NCBI GenBank assembly: GCA_051362555.1
Contig: CM120646.1
Span: forward strand, 7,688,001 to 7,752,000
Direction of reading: 5' to 3'
Source: Lingula anatina
Taxonomy: Eukaryota; Animalia; Brachiopoda
Length of the DNA: 64,000 nt
The notes under the pieces were generated by a model, which did not search any database, was not told the origin of the DNA, and saw nothing but the letters and a program-made list of their open reading frames with translations. Made by a program: the position numbers and the translations under genes. Below are positions 1,965 through 64,000 of the stretch, piece after piece (position 1 is the first letter of the stretch; every line of letters begins with the position of its first letter).

Positions 1965-4900
1965 GCGGGATAACATGATCCCCGACTTTTGTCCCAAAAG
2001 TGCAGGGATAATAAATAGAAATAAACAGTTCGCCCACTGCAGTCATATGGGTTATTTCTACCCTCGGGACCGCAGTGACACATGTCGCTTTAATTCAGAT
2101 CCGATGTAATAATACATGTTTGTTGACGTATAATTTACCTTTCGCTCTTTTCGCCGACAGCGAGGAGACCATACAATTCCCATACATACAATTACGATAA
2201 AGTAACTAGAAAGTAAAACGCTATTATCTTCATGTTGTAATCATGTGTATTGATTTACATTCTCCGCGCGGTTATTTAGTAGGCATTGATTGCCCAGTGG
2301 TAGCCAAATCTATTCAAACAGCCAACTGATTATCAAACTTCCAGTTTCATTGCCTAGATTAGGAGTGATTTCAGTACTGCGTGATAAAATCACAGCATAA
2401 AACCTGCATGACCTATGACAGGTCTTGTAATATTTACGGGCATCCCTGCACCGCTTGGTTAACCGCTCAGTTTGTTGGATAATAGAATCAAATGTGATTA
2501 TTAAATTTTATCTGCCCAATATTTCGCAACCCCATAATATTCTAGCATCGATGCATTGGTTCTATGGTCTAAAGATAATAGTGGCATAGACTTTCCTGTT
2601 AAAGATCAACACCTTCCCTTCCCAAAAGGACAGACAGATACAACGCTCGGCTCACTTGGTGTGAAATATTCGATTTGTACTTTACTTGTGGACATATTTA
2701 TAAACGGGTGATAGATGGGAATAATGGAAAGGTGCGATAAACAGATACATCTGTGTTCGGCGTTCTGTATGTGTACATGTGCCTAACAGCTGTGTCTATA
2801 TATGCATGTGTAGGGCCTAATATTATTTACTGATAAAATGACAACAAACTATTATTAGATTAAAGCCCGAGCGCTGAGAATATGGTATGCAAGCTTCAAC
2901 TTTGTACATGCACATACGTACTATATCAGGAAGCTAGGTGAGGCGTGGAGGGTATTTCATGAGCGAGCGATGTACCAATTTCACTCTCCATTGGTGCTAT
3001 TAAATACATGTACGTACATCTGCTGGTTTTTTGTTAAAACATAATGTACATAATTTTACCCCAATAACAAAAAAGGGAGTCAAGAAAGGCCTATAGGCCC
3101 GATATTGTAATGCATTTACCAGTATTTGTTGCAGTACAACAAGTTAAACATGAAAATAATAATATACTATTACTTGTTGAATTAAGCCAGCTATATATGT
3201 ATAAAGGCCTATATAGGTCACGTGACCAAGTGGCTTGGTTTTTCCAGTTCGGACGAATTTAGAGTTTTATCTGAAAGATTGAATTGAGGTACTCACCCTT
3301 TGCACACACTCGGGATCACGAGTGGGACATACCCAGGTTCTTGGAGAAGGAATTAAGCGATCAAATTATATATTTAACATGTAGTCCGAAACTAAAGTCG
3401 TCAGACGGTCAGCATTCGTATATGTTATATTCTTCAAGAAACATTGATATATTTGGTGACGGTACTTCGGTACTAAAACATAAATGAAGAGACAGTACGT
3501 TACAATGGGAAGCGCCTCAAATGAAGAATCTACATGTAAAACGTCGAGCAAATCATACGTCTAAGGGAGGGCCCAATTCCACGTTAGTTTTTGTTGCACT
3601 GATTTTCCTGAGAGTTAAAGGTGAGAGCTAGTATTGCAATCTTTATCGTTATTATATTAAGACCAAATGTAAACTCTAGTAAGACTAAGAAAAAATTTGA
3701 ATGTCACTCTCGTTGTAAAGTGAGATGACATATAACCATATACATGTATTTGTTGCACTTACTTTTTCGTTGGGCATACCAGTAATTGCTTACGCCAAGT
3801 CTTTTTTTAGACGCTTAGAAATTTACGATAAGGGGAATCCCCTTTATTGAGTCTCCATAGATAAACAGGTAGTGGCAGTCGCAAAAACTCCACAGTCTTA
3901 AAATAAAACAATGTTAGCCGCTTGCTCTTGAAACCCATCCACTCCTTTACTTAATGCCGGTATATCAAGCACTATATCCTGCCTGGAAAAACTAAAACGA
4001 TGGAACTACTGGGTGTCTAGGGGGTGTCTAGGCAGTAAAGTGAGGTTCAATATGACTCTGGTCACATTAACCCCCATAAATATGTGTCTTGATATATAAA
4101 GTGATCAGCACTGCTAATAAAGAGGTGCGTGTAAGTGAGTAATATACTTCGGATAGCCAAACACATAGAAAATAATGAAATAATGGATAGGGAGGGGGTG
4201 GCAGTTGGCGCGCTGCATTCACGTACCTGTCCCAGTTAAGCATATTCAGACATGCTTAAACCCCCTTTACACTGGGTGGCGTCCTTTCTGCGTCCCGTAG
4301 CATGGCCCCGTTAAAGAGTAAATAAAGATTATTGCATGCCCATAATCTATCAAGCTAAGATTTTACCCGAGTCGCTTCCTACAGCTGCCTCTGTAAATAA
4401 CATTACGTCATCCACTTAACCTTATGGCACTATTAGCCAATCGCCCCGCGGGTTTGAATCACGTGCGGAGGAAGACAGAGACCACGCATCTTGTGCACAT
4501 TCCTGAAGACACTCTTTGGCTTACAGCTCAGCCGCACGGACAAATAAGACAAGCGCGTAAGTAGAAGTCAACACCAAATAACATCAATACCGATCAAGGG
4601 TAAGTTACTACCTTCGTTTATTCAGTTTAAGCTCTTTCACGAGCTTTACGTCGTCACACGGCGCTTATTAGCTACAGCACGAATAACATGAGTAGCACGA
4701 GTTTCGCTGGTTCACATGTATTTGTTTCCTGTTACACACCCTTGATAATAGGTACAGCTAAGTACTTTTCTATTTCTTTAACGATAAACTTTGCTTAGGA
4801 AACAAAGAAAACGACCCGATTAGTTATAACTTCTGATAAAATGGTCAGTTTCTGTACGTTCTACGAATCGAAGCGAGTCAAAATGGCGGACTCCTAAATT

Positions 4901-28004: not shown

Positions 28005-35919
<7,915 letters not shown>

Positions 35920-48963: not shown

Positions 48964-49188
48964 GAGACCATTCACATCGAGAAGAGCCGAAGTCTAGCAA
49001 GGCCGAGACCTAAATATGGCGGACCTACACGAAAGGAAGACCGATTGATCTTTTAATGGCCTCTCTATGACATTCATTGACATTCATTGAGACCATTAAA
49101 GGATTACGCGGTTTTCCTTTCATGTAGGTCTGCCATGTTTAGGTCTCGGCCTTGCTAGACCTCGGCTCTTCTCGATGTGAATGCTCTC
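48964..49188. mobile_element. Palindromic MITE of the same family as 33342-33642
   Basis: cattcacatcgagaagagccga...tcggctcttctcgatgtgaatg inverted arms with a different, shorter centre. Confidence 0.87.
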
Positions 49189-49527
49189 ATAGAGACAATT
49201 TTATATGAAAGTCCTGGTGTGACGATGCCCATGCACAGTCGACTGTTTCCATCTTCGCCATAAAAAGCGTCAAAAAAACTTTGATAAAACTTTGATACAG
49301 GTTTAACTTCCAATTGTGCTTCACACCATTTTGTAACATACTATTACTGAAAAGTCATTTTTGTCAATATGAGGGGGAAACTTGAACACTACATTGTCTC
49401 TTCTAGTCAAATATGTAGCGAATGTCCAATTAGTAAAACCACCAATTCCACTGTAATAAAGTTAACCTGACTGGAACAAATGTTATTGATCACGTGCTAC
49501 ACGTGATCAACAGACCTTGGCACAACC

Positions 49528-50070
49528 TCAACCACGGAAAGGACCCCAGAAAAGTTTTGCAGGCGTGTCTACAGTTACTTGGAAATAGTCGGTACCAGCC
49601 TTGACGAACTCTTCCTTGCTGATCATCCCATCGTGATTGGTGTCCAGTGCCTCGAAAGATGGAGTCACCGATAGGGGGTGCACCCCGTAACATTCAAGAA
49701 AAGCCACGTACTCGGGAAGGGAAATCATCCCGTCACTATTGGCGTCCACAGAGTCGAAGAAAGCAGCAAAATATTCTTCCGCCCACTCGTGGAAGTTCGG
49801 ATCACTGAGATAGCGAGAATGGATTTGAATCATATCATCTATGTTGACGTTGTCATTGACCGCCTTGTCGGACCAGTAAAAGTCCCAAGCCGCAGAACAC
49901 AGTGGGATGTATGCATCCGCTTTCTCCTTGGGTATTAATTGACTCACTCTTCCAGCAATCCAGTCGACGTAATCCTTCTTGTTGACCAATCCGTCAAGAT
50001 CTCTGTCAAAGAGGACGAAGAAAGATCGCATCTTACGTACCCAAAAGTAGGGGAAGGGAGCTGCTGCCAT
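49528..50070 (-). CDS. Sarcoplasmic calcium-binding protein-like EF-hand protein, copy 1 (180 aa)
   Basis: FWVRKMRSFF, EF loops DRDLDGLVNKKD, DANSDGMISLPE and DTNHDGMISKEE, and C-terminal EEFVKAGTDYF..KLFWGP, which resemble annelid (Nereis-type) SCP. The start at MAAAP is shared by all three copies. Confidence 0.92.
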   Translation of the reverse strand: MAAAPFPYFWVRKMRSFFVLFDRDLDGLVNKKDYVDWIAGRVSQLIPKEKADAYIPLCSAAWDFYWSDKAVNDNVNIDDMIQIHSRYLSDPNFHEWAEEYFAAFFDSVDANSDGMISLPEYVAFLECYGVHPLSVTPSFEALDTNHDGMISKEEFVKAGTDYFQVTVDTPAKLFWGPFRG

Positions 50071-51200
50071 TTTGTTCTGAAAGCCATTATGAGAACATTT
50101 CTTCTGTTCCAGGTGATAAATGGCAAATACATGTGGGCAATGAGAGAGAAATAATATAAGACCCTGGCATGACATTTATGCCCTTTTCTTACTTACTCAA
50201 GTGACGTCATATCATATACAATGTAATAATTATTTTACTTACGTTTAAAAATTACTTGTCGAAATAGTATCCTCTTTCAGAGTATATATTGTCCTTCTGT
50301 CCCTTGTCAAAAGTAGATTTCTTAACGAGTACCTCTCGATGCTGAGTTCGCACATAAAGTGGCGGAATAACTGTTTCACCTGTTAATTTTCTCAAGGCAC
50401 TCACAACAGTTAGAAATGAGATACGGTGTCCTTGTTCTAGGTCAGATATTCATTATCTTCAAACGGTCGTTTTGAAATGTAAGAACTGATCAGATAAAAA
50501 GAATTGGCAATGACTAGTAAAACATACAATTTCTTTTTCTAGAGGCAAAAGTGTGGTTTAGATTGAGTGAAACACGTACATCGATAAATATGTAGCTGTT
50601 TGAACAAATGTTCTCTGAAAAATATTAATTATCAGAAGGAGCTATTACATAGTTGGAGATATCATACTTAAGTATATATAAAAGTATATATAAAGTTTAT
50701 ATAATGTTTATGACTGTCAAGAAGAAATTAACAATTTAATTTGTAGCTTTTAATTAAAATTCGAATATGATAACAGCGGTTAATCAGAATGGATTCGGCA
50801 TAAATGTTTTTTTGTTATTATTCAGTATCCTTGTCACCGAATTCACGATGTTTTAGTCAAATATTACTATGGCTATTGTGAAGATACACATTTTCGGCGC
50901 AATGTAGATGTACACCTGTAAAGGCAGTGAGGATGCCCAGAATATCATGTCCAAGCTACATAAAAATTATGAAAAAAATATAAAGGATGGAAACGTCGGT
51001 ACTAATGACAACGTCTCACGTACAAATGGATCCTGGCACACTTATCTCTGATACACCAAAAGCGATACAGTATAGAGTCTAAATATCATCAGCGATAATA
51101 ATTATAATTTGATGAACAATATACGATTCCCTTCCTCAGCCCAAAGCAGTGTGATTGCAACTGTCACTGGCCACGTGATCAACTGACCTTGACTACAACC

Positions 51201-51743
51201 TCAACCACGGAAAGGACCCCAGAAAAGTTTTGCAGGCGTGTCTGCGGTTACTTGGAAATAGTCGGTCCCGGCTGTGACGAACTCTTCCTTGCTGATCATT
51301 CCATCGTGATTGGTGTCCAGTGCCTCGAAAGATGGAGTCACCGATAGGGGATGCACGCCGTAACATTCAAGAAAAGCCACGTACTCGGGAAGGGAAATCA
51401 TCCCGTCGCTATTGGCGTCCACAGAGTCGAAGAAAGCAGCAAAATATTCTTCCGCCGACTCGTGGAAGTTCGGATCACTGAGATAGCGAGAATGGATTTG
51501 AATCATATCATCTATGTTGACGTTGTCATTGACCGCCTTGTCGGCCCAGTAGAAGTCCCAAGCCGCCGAACACAGTGGGATGTATGCCTCCGCTTTCTCC
51601 TTGGGTATTAATTGACTCACTCTTTCAGCAATCCAGTCGACGTAATCCTTCTTGTTGACCAATCCGTCAAGGTCTCTGTCAAAGAGGACGAAGAAAGATC
51701 GCATCTTACGTACCCAAAAGTAGGGGAAGGGAGCTGCTGCCAT
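51201..51743 (-). CDS. SCP-like EF-hand protein, copy 2 (180 aa)
   Basis: Near-identical to copy 1 with an intact ORF. Confidence 0.92.
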   Translation of the reverse strand: MAAAPFPYFWVRKMRSFFVLFDRDLDGLVNKKDYVDWIAERVSQLIPKEKAEAYIPLCSAAWDFYWADKAVNDNVNIDDMIQIHSRYLSDPNFHESAEEYFAAFFDSVDANSDGMISLPEYVAFLECYGVHPLSVTPSFEALDTNHDGMISKEEFVTAGTDYFQVTADTPAKLFWGPFRG

Positions 51744-52750
51744 TTTGTTCTGAAAGCCATTATGAGAACATTTCTTCTCTTCCAGGTGATAAATGGCAAA
51801 TACATGTGGGCAATGAGAGAGAAATGAAACAAGACCCTGGCATGACATTTATGCCCTTTTCTTACTTACTCAAGTGACGTCATTTCAAATACAATGTAAT
51901 AATTATTTTACTTACATTTAAAAAGTACTTGTCGAAATAGTATCCTCTTTCAGAGTATATATTGTCCTTTGTCCCTTGTCAAAAGTAGATTTCTTAACGA
52001 GTACCTCTCGATGCTGAGTTCGCACATAAAGTGGCAGAATAACTGTTTCACCTGTTAATTTTCTCAAGGCACTCACAACAGTTAGAAATGAGATACGGTG
52101 TCCCTGTCCAAGGTCAGATATTCATTATCTTCAAACGGTCGTTTTGAAATGTAAGAACTGATCAGATAAAAAGAATTGGCAATGACTAGTAAAACATACA
52201 ATTTCTTTTTCTAGAGGCAAAAGTGTGGTTCAGATTGAGTGAAACACTTAACATCGATAAATATGTAGTTGTCTGAACAGATGTTCTATGAAAAATCGTA
52301 ATTATCAGAAAGAGCTATTACATAGTTGGAGATATCATACTTCAGTATATATAAAAGCATATATAAAGTTTATATAATGTTTATGAATGTCAAGAAAACA
52401 TTTTTATTTGTAGCTTTTAATTAAAATTCGAATATGATAACAGCGGTTAATCAGAATGGATTCGGCATAAATGTTTTTTGTTATTATTCAGTATCCTTGT
52501 CACCGAATTCACGATGTTCTAGTCATATATTACTATAATAATAATAATAAGTTTATTGAGCACTAAATGATGTGAATACATTTGCAGGCTCTCTAGACTA
52601 CAATATTTACATAATATATATATGGGTATACAATTATATATGTTTACATATGTAGTATGTTAAATCATACATGTGTTAATGCAAATTATGCTATAATATT
52701 AATTAATTAAGCTATTCACAGCATTATTGACAATAAGTGGCTGTGATATA

Positions 52751-55700
52751 CTAGATTTCAGGTGAACTATGTATTTTAACAGCAGTCTTTACAAATTCTG
52801 CTATTACTTTGAGACTTTTATGACAGGGTGGATTAAGGAGAATTGACAATATCTGATCACTGTCATCTAGACCCACTACACTGATTTTCAGTAGTTCATC
52901 ATGCATTCGTTGCCTCTCAACAGTGTATCTTGTGCATTCTGTGAGGAAATGTTTTTCATCCTCTACACAGTTGCAAGCTTTACATTTTCTCTCATCAAGT
53001 GGAGTTTTAGGGTTTGTGTATCGGCCCCTTTCTATTGCTAGGTCGTGGTCACTTAGTCTAATTTTTGCTAGTGTTTTGATATCTAAGGGTGAGACACTCA
53101 TTTTGATGTAATTTTCACATTCATAAGATTTTTTAATTGTTTTGTATGTCCTTAATTTGTTTGAGGTCGAACTATTTAATTCCTGCCAAAAGAGTTTTTC
53201 GATTTTTATGTTCAATTTTTCTACTAGGTTTTCTATTTGATGTAATTTCTTTGGTGGGTTGTTATCTTCTGAGAAACCCCAACAATTGTGAAAAGATTGG
53301 ATGGATTCTGTCCATGTGTTTCCCTTTGTGTCTTGCTCAAGATTGTACACCTGTTTTACAATTCTATTATCTGGTAGTTGTTCCAGTCTAAGACTATATC
53401 TTTGGACAAGTTTAGCTATAGTTGGAAAAATAGGGTACCTGCCGAGTTCGGCTCTAGACATGGTATTGCTAGCCTGCTTTCTTAGACCTAAAATCCATTT
53501 GCAAAATTTCAAGTGTACCTGTTCGAATGGCATTTTATTAATCTTTTTCAGAGACATGTTTTTCTGTTTTAGTATCTCCTGTGACCAGACCTCACTACCA
53601 TAAAGCAAAATTGGTTTGATGAGTTTGTCAAATAAGTTCATGCACAAAAGAGGTTTGGAGATGTTTTGAGAGGCAAGTGCTCCTTTAAGGGAAAACAGGG
53701 CTTTTAGGGCCTTTTTCTTTAAATTTTCAATTGCTTCCTTTAATGAGCCAGTATTGGAGAAAACTATTCCCAAATATGGGTATTGTTTTACTTCTTCTAT
53801 GGGTTCATCATTTATGTAAAATTTTGTTTGATGGTCAAGTTTGCCCTTCTTCCTAAACACCATTATTTTTGTTTTCTTTGTATTAATGTGTAACTTCCAC
53901 TTTTGACAGTACTGTTCTAATTTGTTCAGTAGATTTTGCAGTCCATCCTTTGTTCTTGACAGTAGGACCAGATCATCGGCATAGAGTATGTGATTGATGC
54001 CATCTACCTTGTCTGTGGCTTTGCATGTGTGGAAGGATTCTTTTATGTCGTCTATAAATATATTAAAGAGTGTTGGGCTTAGATTATCCCCTTGGCGGAT
54101 TCCAATCTTAGCAAAAAAAGGTTTGGTATAGCTGTTGCCTGTGGAGATTCCTAATTTAGTATTTTTGTACATATGTTTAATCAGATTGTAAAATTTTCCT
54201 CCTATTCCAAGTTTCTGTAATTTGAGTAATAGACCTTTGTGCCATACCGAATCAAATGCCTTTTTAAAATCAATAAAACATGCATAGACCTTCCTATTTT
54301 GATTTGTATATCTGTTAATAATTGATTTAAGTGTGAAAATGTGATCAGTTGTTCTGTAACTTGGTCTGAACCCACCCTGTTCTTCGCTGAGTTTGCCTTC
54401 CTTTTCAATCAAGTCAGTTAGCCTATTTGCCAGAATAGAATTAAATAACTTACCCAAACAGCTTGTAATGCAAAGACCCCTGTAATTTGAGGGATCCAGA
54501 CACTCACCAGACTTATAGAGTGGTATGACTATGCCTAAATTCCAAGCATCAGGGATCTCACCAGAGTTTAAGACCAGGTTAAAAATTTTAGTCATCGCAC
54601 CAGTTAGGTATGGTCGCCCAGTCTTAAGCATTTCATTTCGTATGCTATCTGCCCCAGGTGCTTTGCCATTTTTTAGCTTTCTGAGTGCTTTTTGGACCTC
54701 CAGAATGGTTATAGGGTCATCTAGTTTGGGATTCCCAGGGCAATCTTCATATTTTTTCAATTCATCATCAATATCATTGTCACCTGGAGGCGGGATACCA
54801 CACAGTTGTTGGAAGTAATTGTGCCATACATCAGGGGCAATAAGGTTGTTCTGATCCTCTTCTTTTTTAAGTTTTTTGATAATTTGCCAAAATTCTTTGG
54901 GGTTCTTTTCTTCAATGTTCAAAAGCTTTTCAAGGAGGTTGTCTTTATGTTCTTGTTTTTTCTTTTTCAGAAGTTGTTTGTACTTTTTGCAAGCTTGATG
55001 ATAAGTGTGAGAGATAAAGTGATTATTCGGGTTTTTGTGGAGTAGTCTCCCAAGGTGTTTAACATTCCGTTTTACTTCGATGCATTGATTGTCAAACCAG
55101 GGCTGTTTTTTATTCCCTTTTCTTGGATTACTATTTTTCTTTGACATTCTTTTTGTACGCAGTGATGCACTAGCCGCGCCATCTAGGATTTTATTAAAAG
55201 ACTGACATGCCTTATTTACTCCCTCTTTAGTAGTTGGGAAGGTGGTAGTTTGAAATTCACATATGGCTTCTATGTTTTTTTCACTTTCCAGTTCACTAAG
55301 AAATTTATCTGCAGAGTCATTGCCCCAGATGTACTGATCTTTGAATTTTTGAAGCGGAATAATTTTTGGTGACTCCTTGAAACCCTTACTTGCAATTGTG
55401 AGATCTAGAAGACAGTGATCTGAGATATAGTCAATTGGGTGAACAGTGAAATACTTTACACTATCAACTAACTTATCACTCAAAACTGCATAATCCACTG
55501 CACTACAGCCATTTTGATTGTAACATGTGTAGTACCCTAATGAATTTCCTAACACTCTTCCATTCAGTATTCTCAAATTGCTGCTAATGCATAATTCTAC
55601 AAGGGTTCTTCCCTGAGAGTTTATGATACTGTCTAAGTTGTTCCGAGCAGGAGTGAGCATATCTGTGGGGTGGCTACCAGGCACTGGGATACCGTGTGTG

Positions 55701-56194
55701 TTATCATTTTTGATATAATCTGGGAGTGTACCAGTTCTAGCGTTAAAATCACCCATGAGGCATATCATGCCATCTGATTGATACTGAGCTATTTCCTCTT
55801 CAAGGATGTCAAAGGTAGCTTCATCAAATCTCCCATTCTTTGGCTTAATATATACTGCACACACGAATAAGTCTTTTTGGAGACCGAAACACTGTCCTGG
55901 TAGCCTTATCCATAAGGTATTCTCACTTTTGCTAGACATTACATGAAGAGCACCACTAAATTGTTTTCTGTAATATATGACTATACCGCCGGATGGGCGT
56001 CCTTTTGTTTTCTTTTTTGTTTTTATTTTGTAGAAGTGGCCATGTGTTCCACTAGGTAGGACCATTTTTGATCTCAGGGTGCTAAAAGTTTCTACACATA
56101 TGAATATATCAAAATTTTCGACCATCTCAACAAAGTTTTCATCAGTAAGTTTCTTTGCTAATCCTCTAATATTTCTCATACCGATGCGTAACAT
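52751..56194 (-). CDS. LINE ORF2: APE endonuclease, reverse transcriptase and C-terminal CCHC motif (1147 aa)
   Basis: NIRGL, GDFNART, VDY, SDH (APE); NYRGL, QGGFR, FIDFKKAFDSV, GIRQGDNLSP, YADD (RT); RLSDHDLAIERGRY..CKAC..EDEKHFLTEC. Confidence 0.97.
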   Translation of the reverse strand: MLRIGMRNIRGLAKKLTDENFVEMVENFDIFICVETFSTLRSKMVLPSGTHGHFYKIKTKKKTKGRPSGGIVIYYRKQFSGALHVMSSKSENTLWIRLPGQCFGLQKDLFVCAVYIKPKNGRFDEATFDILEEEIAQYQSDGMICLMGDFNARTGTLPDYIKNDNTHGIPVPGSHPTDMLTPARNNLDSIINSQGRTLVELCISSNLRILNGRVLGNSLGYYTCYNQNGCSAVDYAVLSDKLVDSVKYFTVHPIDYISDHCLLDLTIASKGFKESPKIIPLQKFKDQYIWGNDSADKFLSELESEKNIEAICEFQTTTFPTTKEGVNKACQSFNKILDGAASASLRTKRMSKKNSNPRKGNKKQPWFDNQCIEVKRNVKHLGRLLHKNPNNHFISHTYHQACKKYKQLLKKKKQEHKDNLLEKLLNIEEKNPKEFWQIIKKLKKEEDQNNLIAPDVWHNYFQQLCGIPPPGDNDIDDELKKYEDCPGNPKLDDPITILEVQKALRKLKNGKAPGADSIRNEMLKTGRPYLTGAMTKIFNLVLNSGEIPDAWNLGIVIPLYKSGECLDPSNYRGLCITSCLGKLFNSILANRLTDLIEKEGKLSEEQGGFRPSYRTTDHIFTLKSIINRYTNQNRKVYACFIDFKKAFDSVWHKGLLLKLQKLGIGGKFYNLIKHMYKNTKLGISTGNSYTKPFFAKIGIRQGDNLSPTLFNIFIDDIKESFHTCKATDKVDGINHILYADDLVLLSRTKDGLQNLLNKLEQYCQKWKLHINTKKTKIMVFRKKGKLDHQTKFYINDEPIEEVKQYPYLGIVFSNTGSLKEAIENLKKKALKALFSLKGALASQNISKPLLCMNLFDKLIKPILLYGSEVWSQEILKQKNMSLKKINKMPFEQVHLKFCKWILGLRKQASNTMSRAELGRYPIFPTIAKLVQRYSLRLEQLPDNRIVKQVYNLEQDTKGNTWTESIQSFHNCWGFSEDNNPPKKLHQIENLVEKLNIKIEKLFWQELNSSTSNKLRTYKTIKKSYECENYIKMSVSPLDIKTLAKIRLSDHDLAIERGRYTNPKTPLDERKCKACNCVEDEKHFLTECTRYTVERQRMHDELLKISVVGLDDSDQILSILLNPPCHKSLKVIAEFVKTAVKIHSSPEI

Positions 56195-56749
56195 GTTTCT
56201 CTGTAATTATTGATATCTCTTTAAAAAACATACAAAAAGACCTATCCACACTACTTCAATGAACTTACTCAGTGTTATACTAGTAATTAATCAGGGAGAA
56301 AATCTTCTTTTTCTTTTTGTTGATATTCACTTACTAGTAGTAGTTTTCAGTATTTACTTAAAGCATTTAGTTGGTCACTTAAAGCTTTCAATTTAAAAAA
56401 AAAAAAAAAAAAAAAAGTTCAGCTTCATCTTAATTAAAATCAATACATCCTCATCTGACTTATGGATTATATGTAGTGATTTTTACAGACACTTTCCTTA
56501 TATTATTTTCAGTAGGAAAGTAATTAGTAAACATAACCATTGTGTGTATATTTAGAATATAAGTAGTAAGCTATAGTGAGAATGTTTGCAATAACTTATA
56601 ACTCTTTCATTTTATAGGTTGTGACTATTAGTCTTTCTTTCAAAGTAATGAATACTAATAATGACTATTACTTACATATGGCATCCACTGGATATTTGTA
56701 GTTCTTTACTGTACTTGTGAGTGATCATATAACTAGCTTTGGAAAAGAA

Positions 56750-58993
56750 TTACCTTAGCTTATGCTCTAGTTTGATTAAGCAGTCTCTCAGCATTTTAAG
56801 TTCGTTACCAATATTGCTATCCTTCTGTGGCACTGGCTGTGGCTGATGAATGTCATTGTTACGCCGATGTTGGTGTACATGATGGGCAGGAAAGGTACGG
56901 CGAGGTGTGTGTCTGGCAGCTTGTTTGATGTTGCGAGCAAGCGATATTGTCCCTTTAAAGTTCAGGTGAATTCCATCATGGCTAAATAGCCACCGCTTGT
57001 CAGTGATGTCAGTGTTCTGGATGTAGGTAACATTTTCCAATGATTGACAATATCTTTGGGTGAGAGTGTTTGTTTCCTGAGCTTTTTTGTTGAATGACCA
57101 GTTACCCCACCGAGGTAGTATGTTGCTGACTATAATTTCAGTGTCAGGATATTTCTGCTTAACACTTGTAATCAAGCTCTTCAATTCGTCACAAGTTTCA
57201 CGTGGTTGTTGTTTTTGGATGTTGTTTGATCCAATTATAAGAGAAATGGTTTTTGGACTGCCCCAGTTGCTCTCCTCGATCACTGCCTTTGCATCTGATA
57301 TTTGTCCACCACTCAAAGCAAAACAATGGCTATTGGTCCCAGGGAAAATTTTGTTAGCATTGAGTCCCTTTCCAATTGAGCTAGATACTATTGCATTATC
57401 AAGGGGTCCTGTGTTGATTTTAATATTCCATCTTGTATGTCCAGGGCCTTTTTCAGTGTTCAAAGGGTATTGGATACTAGTGCCATCACTGTTTGTGGGG
57501 GTTGTGGTGATTTGAGGTTGTACATCCAAAGTCTCAGTTACTTTACCCTTGGGTGGGAAAGATTTGTTTTGTGCAGCTCCACTAGAGGGTATGGTGTTAG
57601 TAGAGGATGGTAGGGGATCCTCTTCTCCCACCTGTATCGTGGACACAGGTGAACATGTCATGTTGCTGGTCTCTACGTGATTTAGTTTGATGCTGGTTAG
57701 CACAGGTAGAGGGGTGGGCTTCATCAATAGGTTACCTGTAGTTTCTGATATCTGTGACTCCTTGTTACCTGGTCCATTGTTTGGGAGAGGCATCTCTGCA
57801 GGTGCTTGTGGCGAGGTGCAATTATCTGTCACATCTATGATGCATTGTACTCCACAGTTTGTTGTTGGTGATTGGGGAGGAGGTATATCACACTGAGTTC
57901 CAGTATCTGATGTTGCAGTGATGGTGGGAATAAAGGCACATTGGGTCCCTTCATTCACACTTGTTGTTTGTTTTGCAGTAAGCTGGCAGCCAAGCTTCCC
58001 CACTTGATCTGATAATGTTGTTAATTGGGCTGTTAAGCGGGTCAGGGTGTCTTTCAAGTCTTTGTATTGCTCTGCATTGACTGTAGTTAGCCCAGTAAGC
58101 TGCTCCTCTATGGCTTGTAACTTTTCATTGCTATTCTTTGTATCCTGTCTCTCTTTATCTGCAGTTTTAAGCATTAATACTGAGTACTGGTTTTCAATTG
58201 TTTGAAGAGTTTCTTGTATTTTGCAAATTTCTCTCTCTGATTTCATGTTTTTGGGACTAGAATAAAGTTTGCCTGTTTTGAATCCTTTGGGAGTTGAGGA
58301 ATGGCGAGGCTTTGTTGGTTTTTTAAGCTCAGTTTGACTGTTATCTAGTATTGCTGTATCAAATTCTTCTGCTGATTTACTGGTAATTTCTGTGATTTCA
58401 GTTTGCACTACTGTCTGGCTGGCTGCCACTGCTGGCTGGATCTTTTTGGGTGTTGATATGAGCATTGCAATTTTTGGATAGTCATTTGCGAGCCAAAGCA
58501 TATAAGCTGCTCCTTGGATATGTATTTTCTTGGATTTGGCTGTACTGTAGAAAGTTAGAGAAACATGTCCTAGTTTAGATCCCATAGAGCCGATATAGGG
58601 AAATTTGAGTTGTGAGCCTGATCCTGAATTGACAACATCTTCCGTGGCTTGTTTGTGGTATGATTTGCAAGCTTCAAACCACTTTTTCACTAAGGGCACA
58701 GTACTGATTCCAACTATGGCACATTGGGCATTGTGGGTTGTGGAGACAATATTAGGACCATAGTACTCGTCTTGATAGTCATAATCTGATTCAATCCTAT
58801 TTTCCTGGTCATATACTAGTCTGGATTTTGGATTAATCAGTTTGTGGTAAGCTTCACTATATTCTTGGAGTAAGATTTGAGTATTTCCATTGAACTCATT
58901 CAGGTTACTTGCCTTTGAGGTGAATGCATCCCTTATCTCTTCAGCAGTAGCATTAGGCTTCACTCCTAGCTTAGTGTAGTGATTGTCCTCCAT
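56750..58993 (-). CDS. LINE ORF1: J-domain-like N-terminus, coiled coil, low-complexity linker and SGNH esterase (747 aa from the first ATG)
   Basis: NHYTKLGVKPNATAEEIRDAF...EYSEAYHKLINPKSRLVYD; heptad region ICKIQETLQTIE..LTTLSDQV; esterase blocks IVSSSI, LSGG, IGSNN and DGIH. Confidence 0.9.
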   Translation of the reverse strand: MEDNHYTKLGVKPNATAEEIRDAFTSKASNLNEFNGNTQILLQEYSEAYHKLINPKSRLVYDQENRIESDYDYQDEYYGPNIVSTTHNAQCAIVGISTVPLVKKWFEACKSYHKQATEDVVNSGSGSQLKFPYIGSMGSKLGHVSLTFYSTAKSKKIHIQGAAYMLWLANDYPKIAMLISTPKKIQPAVAASQTVVQTEITEITSKSAEEFDTAILDNSQTELKKPTKPRHSSTPKGFKTGKLYSSPKNMKSEREICKIQETLQTIENQYSVLMLKTADKERQDTKNSNEKLQAIEEQLTGLTTVNAEQYKDLKDTLTRLTAQLTTLSDQVGKLGCQLTAKQTTSVNEGTQCAFIPTITATSDTGTQCDIPPPQSPTTNCGVQCIIDVTDNCTSPQAPAEMPLPNNGPGNKESQISETTGNLLMKPTPLPVLTSIKLNHVETSNMTCSPVSTIQVGEEDPLPSSTNTIPSSGAAQNKSFPPKGKVTETLDVQPQITTTPTNSDGTSIQYPLNTEKGPGHTRWNIKINTGPLDNAIVSSSIGKGLNANKIFPGTNSHCFALSGGQISDAKAVIEESNWGSPKTISLIIGSNNIQKQQPRETCDELKSLITSVKQKYPDTEIIVSNILPRWGNWSFNKKAQETNTLTQRYCQSLENVTYIQNTDITDKRWLFSHDGIHLNFKGTISLARNIKQAARHTPRRTFPAHHVHQHRRNNDIHQPQPVPQKDSNIGNELKMLRDCLIKLEHKLR

Positions 58994-59544
58994 CTTTGTT
59001 GAGACTGTCTGTTTGCTCCTTGAAAGTCTTTTCCAGAATTTAGTCTTTTCACATAAGCTTTGCCTTAAATGTTTGATCCAGTGGTATGCCTTTGAATTTA
59101 AAAACAATCTTCACCTTGATTCAGTTGCATATTAGTAGCTGGTATAGGTATTTTGGTATAACTTTTAGAGAGCTCTTTGCATCCTCTCAGATCAGTCGGC
59201 CATCTTGAAATCTCATCATGGGCTATTGTGAAGATACTCATTTTCGGCGCAATGTAGATGTACACCTGTAAAGGCAGTGAGGATGCCCAGAATATCATGT
59301 CCAAGCTACATAAAAATTATGAAAAAAAATATAAAGGATGGAAACGTCGGTGCTAATGACAACGTCTCACGTACAAATGGATCCTGTCACACTTATTTCT
59401 GATACACCAAAAGCGATCCAGTATAAATATCATCAACGATAATAATTATACTTTGATGAACAATATACTATTCCCTTCCTCAGCCCAAAGCAGCGTGATT
59501 GCAACTGTCACTGGCCACGTGATTAACTGACCTTGACTACAACC

Positions 59545-60087
59545 TCAACCACGGAAAGGACCCCAGAAAAGTTTTGCAGGTGTGTCTGCAGTTACTTGGA
59601 AGTAGTCGGTCCCAGCTTTTACGAACTCTTCCTTGCTGATCATCCCATCATGATTGGTGTCCAGTGCCTCGAAAGATGGAGTCACCGATAGGGGGTGTAC
59701 GCCGTAACATTCAAGAAAAGCAGTGTACTCGGATAGGGAAATCATCCCGTCACTATTGGCGTCCGCAGAGTCGAAGAAAGCAGCAAGACATTGTTCCGCT
59801 GACTCGTGGAAGTTCGGATCACTGAGATAGCGAGAATGGATTTGAATCATATCATCTATGTTGACGTTGTCATTGACCGCCTTGTCGGCCCAGTAGAAGT
59901 CCCAAGCCGCCGAACACAGTGGGATGTATGCCTCCGCTTTCTCCTTGGGTATTAATTGACTCACTCTTCCAGCAATCCAGTCGACGTAATCCTTCTTGTT
60001 GACCAATCCGTCAAGATCTCTGTCAAAGAGGACGAAGAAAGAGCGCATTTTGCGTACCCAAAAGTAGGGGAAGGGAGCTGCTGCCAT
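59545..60087 (-). CDS. SCP-like EF-hand protein, copy 3 (180 aa)
   Basis: Intact ORF; the most diverged of the three copies (QCL for EYF, ADANS, SEYT). Confidence 0.92.
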   Translation of the reverse strand: MAAAPFPYFWVRKMRSFFVLFDRDLDGLVNKKDYVDWIAGRVSQLIPKEKAEAYIPLCSAAWDFYWADKAVNDNVNIDDMIQIHSRYLSDPNFHESAEQCLAAFFDSADANSDGMISLSEYTAFLECYGVHPLSVTPSFEALDTNHDGMISKEEFVKAGTDYFQVTADTPAKLFWGPFRG

Positions 60088-61699
60088 TTTTGTTCTGAAA
60101 TAAAAGCAGCCATAAGGAGTAGAGTTCTAACTTTTTAGTTGATAAATGGAAGCTGCAATACAATTGGGCAATATGAGAGAAATAATATACACAATTTAAA
60201 ACCCTGTCATGACATTCACGTCTCTTTTATTTAAGTAACGCAATATCATTTACACTGTAATTATTATTTTACTTACGTTTTTAAAGTATTTGTCGAAATA
60301 GTATACTCTTTCCGACTTTATTTTGTCTTTCTGCCCCTTGTCAAAAGCAGATTTCATAAGTGAGGACTACCCGATGCTGCGTTCGCACATAAAATGGGGG
60401 AATGGCCGTTTCACCTGTTAATTTTCTCAAGGCACTCACAACAGTTAGAAATGAGATACGGTGTCCTTGTCCTAGGTCAGATATTCATTATCTTCAAATG
60501 GTCGTTTTGAAATGTAAGAACTGATCAGATAAAAAGAATTGGCAATGAATAGTAAAACATACAATGTTTTTTTCTAGAGGCAAAAGCGTGGTTCAGATTG
60601 AGTGAAACGCTTACATCGAAGAATATGTAGCTGTTTGAACAGATATTCTCTCAAAAATGGTAATTATCAGAAAGAACTTTAGCACTTAAAATCCCTAGGG
60701 TCTCAACAGGTTTGACTCTTTCTACAGTCTACAATCATCACTTTGTTTTGCTCATGCTTCAGTCTTTTCTTTTTCTCTCGATGTGCACTCCTGGTCCCGT
60801 TAAGGATGCTATCCAAATTTTCCGCTCTTATTGTCGATGGCAAGATCGACCCACCGTTTCTCGAGAACTGCTGAGTAAGCAGACTAAGAGCAGAGTGACT
60901 ATGGCTGCTAAATATCATATATAAATATTGATATATCATCCCCATGGTAGTTCAACACCTCCACTTCATGTTGCCACTTACCCAGCAAAATAATAATGAT
61001 TATAAACCATAGAAAGAAATTGTGTTTTCTGTGGCCCCGATTTCCAGTGTACAATGTACATGGTCAATGGCGGATTTTAGGGAGGACAAAGTTATGAGAC
61101 CCATACTTAGCTTATCATTCGCTACACCCCCTCCCTGCGGCTGACCACCACAACAAAATGTGTAAAGAGCAAAACGAGATAATATAACAGTTTTTCATAT
61201 CTCACCCCTCCCTCAGTATAACAGTGAAGTTCCCCCCATTTAGTTTTTACCCAATCCACTTTTGAAATGGTGATTGTTAATCGTTTAAAGCTATAGCTGA
61301 AAGAACGCCAAGAGATGTTCAATTTGAGTTGTTAATAATAATAATTTATCGTGAAAAAATTAAAATAGTTAAAATTGTACTGGAATTATCAAATAGCTAG
61401 TGCATGCGATAGTTGTGAGCGCAGTCCTACACGCAAAACAAAGGGTACAAGGAACTCTTCTCTTTCCTAAAAACCATCCCGAATGAAAATAGAGAAAACA
61501 GATATCCTTTCACCCCTATACATTATGTAATATAGTGAATCTGTTATAATATTTGCCGAACGATCGAAGCGGAAAATGTTTATCCATTCTTCCCCGCTTT
61601 CTCACATGGCACATCCCTAAATCTGTCACTGATGATATTTAATTCACTTCCTGTGCCAAGGTGATTTTTATTTTTCTACTTTTATTTTTTAATCGGAAT

Positions 61700-64000
61700 A
61701 GACGTCTATTCCAATAGATATAAAACCAAACAATAGTTTGTTAATAATACAAATATAGTTAGAGATATCATATTTCAATATATCTCTAAAGCAAAGGAAG
61801 AAATTAAAATTTTTATTTGTAGCTATTATATAAAATTCTAATATGATAACAGCGGTTTATCAATATGTTTTTGTTATCATTCCTTATCAGGGTCAACGAA
61901 TTCACGATGCTCTAGTCATATATTACTATGGGCTATTGTGTTATACTCATTTTTGGCGCGATGTGCACCTGTAAAGGCAGTGAGGATGGTCAGAAAAGCA
62001 TTTCCAAGCTACATAAAAAATTGTGAAAAAAAATACCAAAGATGAAAACGTCGGTGCTAATGACAACGTCTCACGTACAAATGGGTCCTGTCACACTTAT
62101 TTCAGATACACCAAAAGCGATACAGTATAGAGTCTAAATATCATCAGCGATTGTAATTATAATATGATGAACAATATACACTTCCTTACTCACCCAATTG
62201 CAGCGTAATTGGAATAACTCTGTGCAGTACAGTGTCAGTAAAATACAGTCCGAAGGTTTTTAAACCATAGTGTTAAAACATAGTTACATACTGGCTACAT
62301 GACCTAGATCTGAATAAGTCAAATGTTTTAACACTATTAAAAGACGCAGGCTATGCGGAATGCATACAGTGGTCCGTTCATTACTTGCTATTTTAAAACG
62401 AAATGGTTGCCTAATGTACTAATACTAATTTCAGCTATTCTCACTCGAGTATGAAACGTGTTACACATTTGTGGTCCTCTTTTCTGCATATCGTTTACGT
62501 TAATGTTTCTTTGATGAAGATAGGAAAAAACAAGAAAAATCTCAGAGGACAAACAATTAACCAATGTGTAATCATTCAGTAATAAATTGGTCAACACCAA
62601 AAGCTGAACAATTTTTTGATAGATTTTTTTTGTCCTTTCCTGAAAATTTTATCAAAATTCATCGATAAGTCTATGGACAATGCTGGTGACGAACAAAGAG
62701 ACAAGCAGAAAGACAAGCAGATGAAAGATGAAAACGTTGCATACTTGACGGAGGTAATGGCTGGAATTCGAATGCTTCTTTTTTTTTTTAATTTTAGAAA
62801 GTTGTCAGTTTTTCCATTATATGTAGAAACAGGCCGCTTTGTTAATAAAAAAAATAGAAGATGGACTCTGTATTCTCTGTAAAGATAAAAAAGTAGAAGA
62901 TGAGCTTAATTTTTTTTTTGATTGTCCAATTTATATCTTATCTTTCACGACCTGGAGGAGGTTACAGAGAGACCTCAAGTGCTTTTTACAGACTTTCATA
63001 GAAGAACAGCGAGGTTTCTCTTTAACTGCTTTCAGGTCAGAAAGAAGTTGTTATATAAATAATGTTAAAACCGGTGACTTTGTAAGCCCATAGGGCTAGG
63101 ACGTTACATATATATGTATTCATATTATTGCATTATGTTTAATATTTGTATATATTCGGTATATATTCGATATAAATCAATTTAACTATTTGTTAATCGA
63201 AATAGACTTTTATTCCAATAGATATAAAACCCAACAATAGTTTGTTAAGAATACAGATATGGTTGGAGATATCATATTTCAGTAATAATGAAAACAAAGT
63301 TTATGACTGTCAAGAAGAAATTAATCTTTTTATTTGTAGCTATTTATAAAAATCGAATATGATAACAGCGGATAATCAGTATGGATTCGTAATAAATGCT
63401 TTTGTTATTATTCCTTATCCAGGTCTCCGAATTCACGATGTTCTAGTCATATATTACTATGGACTATTGTGAAGATACTCATTTTTGGGGCGATATACAC
63501 CTGTAAAGGCAGTGAGGATACTCAGAAAATCATGTCCAAGCTACATTAAAGATGCATACAAAGTCAATTTTTTGTCACAAAAACCAACCAAATGCCAGCA
63601 TATAGTTTCAAGTAGTATAACTAAAACAATTACCAAAAGGCATTGTTTAATTTTACCCGAAAATGATGTTTGAACGGATTTTTCTGCTGGCATTCTAACT
63701 TGTACATGTATATCAATGGGGCAGGAAAGTAGGTCACGAAAGTAGGTTAAATTTACAACCAATAATTTTAAGAAAGGAGCAGTCTAAAGGTCTTTTATGG
63801 CTGATCGAGTGATCTATTCAGTTTATCCCGTGGCATGTCGAATTTATTTGAGTCATATAAGAATCTAGTAGAAGTGGTTTACATGTGTTAATTACTGGGA
63901 ATCCACGCTCCACCGATGCTTGGTTCGTATGTACCTTTAAAATTATGAAAAAAATACCAAGGATGAAAAAGTGGGTGCTAATGACAACGCCTCACGTACA
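61700..64000. repeat. Gene-less remnants of the SCP unit spacer (61740-62210, 63200-63545, 63938-64000)
   Basis: tatgataacagcgg..gaattcacgatg..atattactatgg..cacctgtaaaggcagtgaggat..ctaatgacaacg match 50765-51165. Confidence 0.85.
62770..63000 (+). pseudogene. Decayed 3' fragment of another RTEX-like LINE ORF2
   Basis: PLYVETGRF, then after a frameshift IEDGLCILCKDKKVEDELNFFFDCP, a decayed CCHC motif homologous to the ORF2 C-terminus near 52900-53060. Confidence 0.75.

Follow-up and report, generated by a model that had tools for sequence, protein, structure and literature searches.

A LINE whose first ORF begins with a J-like domain

A 64,000-nucleotide stretch of the genome of the brachiopod Lingula anatina (contig CM120646.1, forward-strand positions 7,688,001 to 7,752,000; hereafter the window) contains a full-length long interspersed nuclear element (LINE) whose first open reading frame (ORF1) starts with a DnaJ-type domain, or J-domain. 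In the window copy this domain has lost the His-Pro-Asp (HPD) triad, which most of the relatives that we identified retain, and the copy is most simply viewed as a degenerate representative of a broader set of elements. The element and its parts are as follows.

52537..59217, minus strand: full-length LINE with an RTEX-like layout, about 6.7 kb, within a tandem unit; bounds drawn from self-comparison, junctions and copies with other flanks
58994..59217, minus strand: 5' untranslated region (UTR) with short upstream ATGs; the ORF1 ATG lies in a good Kozak context
56750..58993, minus strand: ORF1, 747 amino acids (aa), with J-like domain, TBP-like domain, coiled coil, Pro/Ser/Thr-rich linker and SGNH esterase, and no PHD finger
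58805..58993, minus strand: J-like domain, residues 1-63; J fold retained; losses comprise HPD, the Phe of helix III and the residue equivalent to K/R26
58454..58750, minus strand: domain 2, residues about 82-180; predicted TBP-like/KA1-like fold with no Pfam family; Y149, Q160 and G161 are aligned to sites used for hybrid binding in the N-domain of RNase H3
57959..58243, minus strand: probable coiled coil, residues about 251-345, suggested by low-scoring matches to numerous coiled-coil families in Pfam
56918..57403, minus strand: SGNH/GDSL esterase, residues about 531-692; PF13472 match with E 2.7e-8, above cut-off; block I Ser539, block III GSNN at 588, D673-x-x-H676
56195..56749, minus strand: AT-rich inter-ORF spacer of 555 nt; it contains a long run of T and, directly before the ORF2 ATG, a pyrimidine tract plus AG
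52751..56194, minus strand: ORF2, 1147 aa, open, with an apurinic-type endonuclease (8-261), a reverse transcriptase (RT; 568-811) and a C-terminal Cys/His motif
52537..52750, minus strand: 3' UTR terminating with AATAAA and a (TTA)n tail

Self-comparison of the window reveals that the LINE breaks a 1.67-kb tandem unit, with a target-site duplication of at most 2 bp. Contigs and reads carry foreign flanks at both element ends (59216 and about 52536). Contigs from sequencing run X1 differ from the window element by about 3 substitutions over about 6.5 kb, and the depth in that run is about 42-200 on the element versus 1.5-8 in its flanks, while ORF1, including the J segment, is covered by contigs from four DNA runs. 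Low divergence, high depth and other flanks at both ends together indicate a young multi-copy family in which the J segment is part of ORF1, and they bear out the proposal of the first-pass annotation that this is an intact, recent LINE inserted into a tandem array. A one-off insertion of the J segment into the window copy was rejected, given that the multi-copy contigs of other copies carry it. Runs X6 and X10 contain junctions that span the element; these were considered as an empty allele and not accepted, as they may derive from sister tandem units. RNA reads from four runs (42-213 each on the window) fall mostly on diverged 3' ends, with none in the bin 58825-59101, and are neutral on ORF1 expression.

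The J fold is retained and the Hsp70 contacts are lost

Residues 1-63 of the window ORF1 are a DnaJ-type domain. The Pfam DnaJ profile (PF00226) matches residues 4-62 of a 70-aa N-terminal piece across its full length (E 6.2e-7, 29.9 bits, with a cut-off of 27.8), and matches the whole ORF1 slightly below the cut-off (E 1.1e-5, 25.9 bits). Matches among PDB sequences are J-domains, the best being DNAJA1 (E 7e-6), with dnj-12 also recovered. A J profile built from 37 relatives, with the window excluded, assigns the window domain 42.5 bits, versus 2.2 bits for the reversed sequence and at most 8.6 bits for 500 shuffles, and a chance resemblance is rejected on these controls. An AlphaFold2 model made from a 42-row alignment (pLDDT 85, pTM 0.76) forms four helices between residues 5 and 64, and these match J-domains of known structure with Z 9.5; folding from the single sequence was poor (pLDDT 37). 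The J-domain-like start of ORF1 noticed in the first-pass annotation is upheld by profile, model and family alike. Word-index protein searches gave no match, either with ORF1 residues 1-200 or with alignment A2 among proteins of 2007-5000 aa.

The replacement of HPD by NEF noted earlier is also correct: the three positions are occupied by N32-E33-F34. Passages of PMC10349383 describe three Hsp70 interfaces of J-domains, namely HPD, the basic residues of helix II (R22, K26 and R27 in Escherichia coli DnaJ numbering) and helix III, and state that type IV proteins devoid of these interfaces may fail to bind Hsp70. In the window copy, the K/R26 equivalent is Thr25, and Leu42 stands in place of the helix III Phe, which every one of the 28 HPD-bearing relatives retains. 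Of the helix II basic residues, only the R22 equivalent (R21) is retained, with those of K26 and R27 lost, and the net charge of helix II is -2 versus 0 to +4 in 28 HPD-bearing relatives. The domain thus has the fold and the DnaJ profile of a canonical J-domain and lacks the HPD and the basic helix II, and it belongs with the J-like (type IV) domains, which combine a J fold with a corrupted HPD and lowered helix II charge. The same combination of a retained hydrophobic core and lost Hsp70-contact residues is present in the window family, in the relatives from amphioxus and in a small number of other members.

Most relatives retain HPD

A HMMER search with ORF1 residues 1-216 against 1.84 billion proteins returned 69 matches. 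We kept the 41 in which domain 2 or its start is present, and excluded 28 cellular J-proteins and unrelated matches. Adding L074 and L002 and removing 6 rows with an incomplete J-domain or domain 2 left 37 relatives with both N-terminal domains complete. HPD is present in 28 of these 37, a proportion that is not a clade frequency because the query contained the J-domain and J-less relatives were under-sampled. The check on relatives suggested with the first-pass annotation finds that most of them keep HPD, and the idea that the captured module was itself an HPD-less form is not supported.

The HPD-bearing relatives share on average 41% identity with one another in the J-domain and 42% in domain 2, and the window copy is 29.7% and 29.9% identical to them in these two domains, respectively, so its J-domain stands as close to theirs as its domain 2 does, in keeping with a retained core. 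In a 29-row HPD-bearing alignment the invariant residues are H, P and D, the Phe of helix III and a single Ala, of which only Phe and Ala are informative because the rows were selected for HPD. The K26 position is K or R in 19 of the 28 HPD-bearing rows. Six cluster representatives from Branchiostoma belcheri are the sole relatives with a species name, and all six lack HPD. In several clusters of relatives there are multiple nearly identical members, and some of these lie on contigs of 6-9 kb. Among the 41 relatives, eight have an esterase match, two a PHD match and one a sub-threshold match to NADAR. The latter, in the HPD-bearing P0063 (residues 704-839, E 3e-7, below the cut-off), is a NADAR-like domain that follows the N-terminal modules and precedes the esterase. 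Several database labels look mis-annotated: NCBI calls the B. belcheri ORF1-type proteins P0105 and P0141 'G-protein coupled receptor', and JGI calls P0053 'curved DNA-binding protein CbpA'.

A motif scan gave five metagenome matches, of which two were real (L074 and L075) and three arose by chance, along with one viral match that was also due to chance. The L074 contig carries an ORF1 with an HPD-bearing J-domain, domain 2, a Cys-rich finger and an esterase, followed by an endonuclease-RT ORF. In an ORF2 tree (FastTree, 45 rows) L074 is the nearest row to the window ORF2, with 39% identity, and a nine-row group enclosing both has support 99. An HPD-bearing ORF1 therefore lies upstream of a related RT, in agreement with the earlier proposal that a LINE lineage captured a J-domain. 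Eukaryote-type LINE contigs (L001-L070) occur in many GTDB symbiont and metagenome assemblies and are likely host contamination.

HPD was probably lost repeatedly

A tree of domain 2 (43 rows, 96 columns, unrooted) requires at least five changes of the HPD state. A single clade of HPD-less sequences (9 rows, with P0069, a one-letter HLD variant, excluded) is rejected by the approximately unbiased (AU) test (p-AU 0.011), and there is no common replacement motif among the HPD-less lineages. The states HPL and HPV recur across several cluster members and are therefore family states. Loss is simpler than gain, given that most relatives retain HPD and that cellular J-domains carry it. Most simply, then, HPD loss is secondary and repeated, and the window copy represents a degenerate form within a broader group. 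A tree of J-domains alone does not reject a single clade of LINE J-domains (p-AU 0.65). With these results in hand, we are confident, short of certainty, that an ancestral element captured a working J-domain and that HPD was later lost in the window family.

Several observations weigh against this reading. The domain-2 tree, which is unrooted and has 96 columns, does not distinguish gain from loss, and the window forms a long branch on it with no supported placement. In the J-only tree, which is unresolved, the rows nearest to the window are cellular J-domains (45%), although these had been picked by likeness to it. The sampling limit on the 28 of 37 HPD-bearing relatives noted above also belongs here, as does the presence of Leu or Ile at the K/R26 position in 9 of the 28 HPD-bearing rows. 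An esterase match is missing from 33 of the 41 relatives, many of which are fragments. L074 is the sole relative observed beside an RT, the others being assigned by architecture, and the fork that joins the window, L074 and P0002 has a support of 81 in the FastTree tree.

A predicted TBP-like domain follows the J-domain

The earlier description of the ORF1 N-terminus was accurate for the J-like domain and overlooked a second domain behind it. The model of residues 82-180 consists of a beta-sheet and two helices. Its fold matches include the KA1 domain of SAD-B (Z 8.9, root-mean-square deviation (rmsd) 2.9 over 91 residues), the N-domain of RNase H3 (3vn5, Z 7.7, rmsd 2.1 over 69; 4py5, Z 6.5) and METTL16 (Z 7.6), although Z values near 8 may reflect a common arrangement. 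Domain 2 has no matches in Pfam, NCBIfam or PDB sequences.

The comparison with RNase H3 is of interest because of the residues that are conserved. Among 43 rows, Tyr is present in 41, Ser or Thr two positions on in 37, Gln in all 43 and Gly in 40, and the conserved Tyr, Gln and Gly align with the RNase H3 strand pair Y-x-S-G-K-x-x-x-Q-G. According to passages of Figiel and Nowotny 2014 (PMC4132731), Tyr43, Ser45 and Gly52 of this strand pair contact the RNA/DNA hybrid. These three residues (and Gln54 of the Bacillus enzyme) are matched in domain 2, where Thermovibrio numbering was carried over through motif spacing and not through superposition; equivalents of Glu27 and His28 were not identified in the alignment of domain 2 to RNase H3. 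An hhalign comparison with the RNase H3 N-domain (20 rows, one of them spurious) gave P 4e-4 and a score of 25.6, versus at most 13.4 for 30 column shuffles and 11.9 for two other controls. Two points count against a specific kinship with RNase H3: the hhalign match is weak (probability 34%) and the comparison was chosen after the fold search, and KA1 (Z 8.9) fits domain 2 slightly better than RNase H3 does (Z 7.7). We thus regard domain 2 as a candidate nucleic-acid binder, on the basis of its predicted fold and conserved residues.

Domain 2 is found in the absence of a J-domain in ORF1 of other LINEs (L103, L106, L107 and L108); L002 likewise has domain 2 and no J-domain, but it is cut at its 5' end. 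The domain may therefore be a widespread unnamed ORF1 domain that reaches beyond J-bearing elements into other LINE groups, and a single branch probably gained the J-domain ahead of it. Of 17 contaminated bacterial assemblies searched with a domain-2 profile, 2 gave matches. L104 and L105 carry domain 2 with no J-domain and no RT on the contig; L103-L108 and L002 all represent host contamination of bacterial assemblies. Esterase-type ORF1 proteins (ORF1ps) are said, in a part of PMC3905857, to contain no structural RNA-binding domain, and domain 2 is a candidate answer to the puzzle of how such proteins bind nucleic acids.

Proposed function and alternatives

Given what is established about J-domain biology, recruitment of Hsp70 by the HPD-bearing relatives is likely. 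We propose that an HPD-bearing ORF1p would bring cytosolic Hsp70 to coiled-coil multimers assembled on the element RNA and trigger ATP hydrolysis. Hsp70 action would keep the particle soluble, and would remodel it or strip it from the RNA, so that reverse transcription by ORF2p could proceed. The TBP-like domain, judging from its fold and its conserved Tyr and Gln-Gly, would bind the RNA of the element or an RNA/DNA hybrid, and the esterase may target membranes, as has been proposed for ZfL2-1. In the window family, which would have inherited the captured J-domain and then lost HPD, the J-like bundle probably serves a structural purpose, as a cap that packs against the TBP-like domain, and would be neither an Hsp70 activator nor, probably, a decoy. 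The first-pass suggestion of a ribonucleoprotein-assembly module accordingly fits the HPD-bearing relatives better than it fits the window copy.

Taken as a whole, the account in which a J-domain was captured, most relatives recruit Hsp70 and the window copy is degenerate is the one that we favour, with moderate confidence. A bolder version, in which a LINE lineage encodes its own Hsp70 co-chaperone, an HPD-bearing J-domain coupled to an RNase H3-type hybrid binder directs host Hsp70 to uncoat the particle during target-primed reverse transcription, this hook has been switched off repeatedly, and the arrangement is absent from every catalogue, is speculative and on balance doubtful.

A different possibility is that the J-domain is a passenger, acquired when a retrocopied host DnaJ message became fused to ORF1, which brings little benefit and decays slowly under a constraint against misfolding, HPD persisting by inertia. 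Domain gain is common among ORF1s (passages of PMC4120745), LINEs with domain 2 and no J-domain exist, and several successful families, including the window family and all six amphioxus proteins, manage without HPD. However, an exposed triad that persists in 28 of 37 relatives at about 41% identity, accompanied by an invariant Phe and a basic helix II, would be unexpected without selection, and we consider this explanation unlikely.

The HPD-less domain might also act as a decoy or adaptor that binds Hsp70 without activating it, or that pairs with a host J-protein in the manner of Pam16 and Pam18, thereby steering chaperones. The J fold is retained in a young, active family, HPD-less states are seen in at least five lineages and the R22-equivalent R21 is kept. 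Portions of the literature describe J-like adaptors with a corrupted HPD (PMC10939069) and one Plasmodium type IV protein that potentially interacts with Hsp70 (PMC10349383). The decoy put forward in the first-pass annotation is nevertheless not supported by the contact surface. HPD, the K/R26 equivalent, the other helix II basic residue R27 and the helix III Phe are gone and helix II has a net charge of -2, which is the loss of the very surface that a decoy would need. The HPD-less lineages moreover share no replacement motif, and the 42.5 bits of the window domain on the family profile compare with 50-97 for the other full-length J rows, from which the profile was built. We judge a decoy or adaptor role improbable.

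Least probable of all is a separate origin. In this view the J-domain of the window copy stems from a capture of its own, with a DNAJA-type gene as one conceivable donor, or many of the HPD-bearing proteins are ORF1s that have been domesticated as host genes. In favour of it, the best PDB matches are DNAJA1 and dnj-12, the nearest rows in the J-only tree are cellular and genomic context is missing for most relatives. Against it, the window domain matches those of the relatives in position, spacing and neighbouring domain, the RT of the window copy is sister to that of L074, several clusters contain multiple nearly identical members, some of them on contigs of 6-9 kb, and a single LINE J clade is not rejected.

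We therefore retain the capture of a working J-domain, with later loss of HPD, as the preferred explanation, and its main interest lies in the HPD-bearing relatives and less in the window copy alone, which is a degenerate form. How the ORF1p coat is built, and how it is removed before reverse transcription, is an open question across LINEs. A LINE with its own J-domain makes a role of Hsp70 in particle remodelling directly testable, with the HPD-less families as natural controls.

Other features of the element and the locus

The esterase region has the catalytic Ser, the block III Asn and the D-x-x-H motif of SGNH hydrolases, with a block I that reads SSS rather than GDS, and its activity is a prediction. 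ORF1 with a coiled coil and an SGNH esterase, together with ORF2 with an apurinic-type endonuclease and RT, corresponds to the RTEX arrangement. A coiled coil with an esterase is not unique to RTEX, given that CR1 and L2 elements also have esterases, and the ORF2 tree contains unnamed relatives only; we therefore call the element RTEX-like, on the strength of its layout.

The inter-ORF spacer is long and AT-rich in both J-bearing elements (555 nt in the window; 833 nt in L074, at 3539-4371). The pyrimidine tract and AG before the window ORF2 ATG could act as a splice acceptor, in cis or in trans, from which an ORF2 message would be made. The spacer also varies among copies in the contigs. In run X1, one contig departs from the element about 80 nt past the ORF1 stop (56671), and another links the ORF2 start (56200) to different upstream DNA; these may represent an ORF1-only derivative or a sister subfamily. 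The ORF1 contig has about twice the depth of the ORF2 contig in run X1 only, and contig depth cannot rank the parts of the element.

The surrounding locus includes the following host features.

59545..60087, minus strand: intronless EF-hand gene in the host flank, resembling sarcoplasmic calcium-binding proteins; best PDB match 1q80/2scp, E 5e-25
49528-50070 and 51201-51743: further copies of the EF-hand gene in the interrupted array

The array of the 1.67-kb unit occupies 49500-52536 and 59218-64000 and includes three intact intronless EF-hand genes, with units that are 89-96% alike. The LINE lies between copies 2 and 3, and the array continues as gene-less, more diverged pieces of the unit. 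The window also contains two copies (33346-33638 and 48969-49184) of a palindromic repeat, about 200-300 bp long, that looks like a small inverted-repeat element.

Comparison with known systems

The ORF1ps of the RTEX clade covered in portions of Schneider et al. 2013, PMC3905857 (RTEX_BF, RTEX-1_SK and RTEX_NV) resemble the window ORF1 in having a coiled coil followed by an SGNH esterase. In Table S1 of that source, coiled coils of amphioxus and acorn-worm RTEX elements start at 266-356 and esterases fall within 469-722 (RTEX-1_BF excepted), compared with about 251-345 and about 531-692 in the window. The first 270 residues of RTEX ORF1p are unassigned in the parts of that source, and it is here that the window ORF1 carries its J-like and TBP-like domains. 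A J-like start is probably present in the RTEX entries from amphioxus, and curators may already have recorded it. A J-domain or TBP-like domain in a LINE or RTEX ORF1 is undescribed in the literature that our search covered, the scope of which excluded Repbase and most subscription papers. The term 'DnaJ' does not occur in the available portions of PMC3905857 (outside its supplement file 1), PMC4120745, PMC5408684, PMC12477816 or PMC10294476. In the corresponding portions of PMC3753637 a DnaJ homolog is mentioned solely as a component of L1 particles that comes from the host, and in those of PMC9004415 RTEX and DNAJB9 appear only in unrelated table rows.

Among J-proteins, as described in excerpts of PMC10349383 and PMC10939069, the HPD-bearing relatives look like class C, in which the four-helix J fold is placed on an otherwise unrelated protein. 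The window copy is like the type IV J-like proteins treated in such excerpts (Pam16, DNAJB13 and RESA), which also have a corrupted HPD and reduced helix II charge. Unlike the class C and type IV proteins covered there, the domains described here are encoded by a retrotransposon and fused to a particle-forming protein, and both HPD states exist within one mobile-element group.

Domain 2 differs from the N-domain of RNase H3 in that no RNase H catalytic domain follows it and in being a predicted binder only. It also has a further pair of strands at its N-terminus and, in most cases, a turn that is longer by one residue. Its fold is also like that of the KA1 domains (SAD-B, METTL16), which may bind RNA. 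KA1 domains may also bind acidic lipids.

Viruses offer a parallel. Polyomavirus T antigen carries J-protein sequence, as do pestiviruses that have captured fragments of Jiv/DNAJC14. The likeness is that of a genetic parasite directing host machinery by means of J-protein sequence, and the difference is that these examples are viruses; in the literature that our search covered, no case in a non-LTR retrotransposon came to light. If our interpretation is correct, retrotransposons join viruses as parasites that encode chaperone recruiters.

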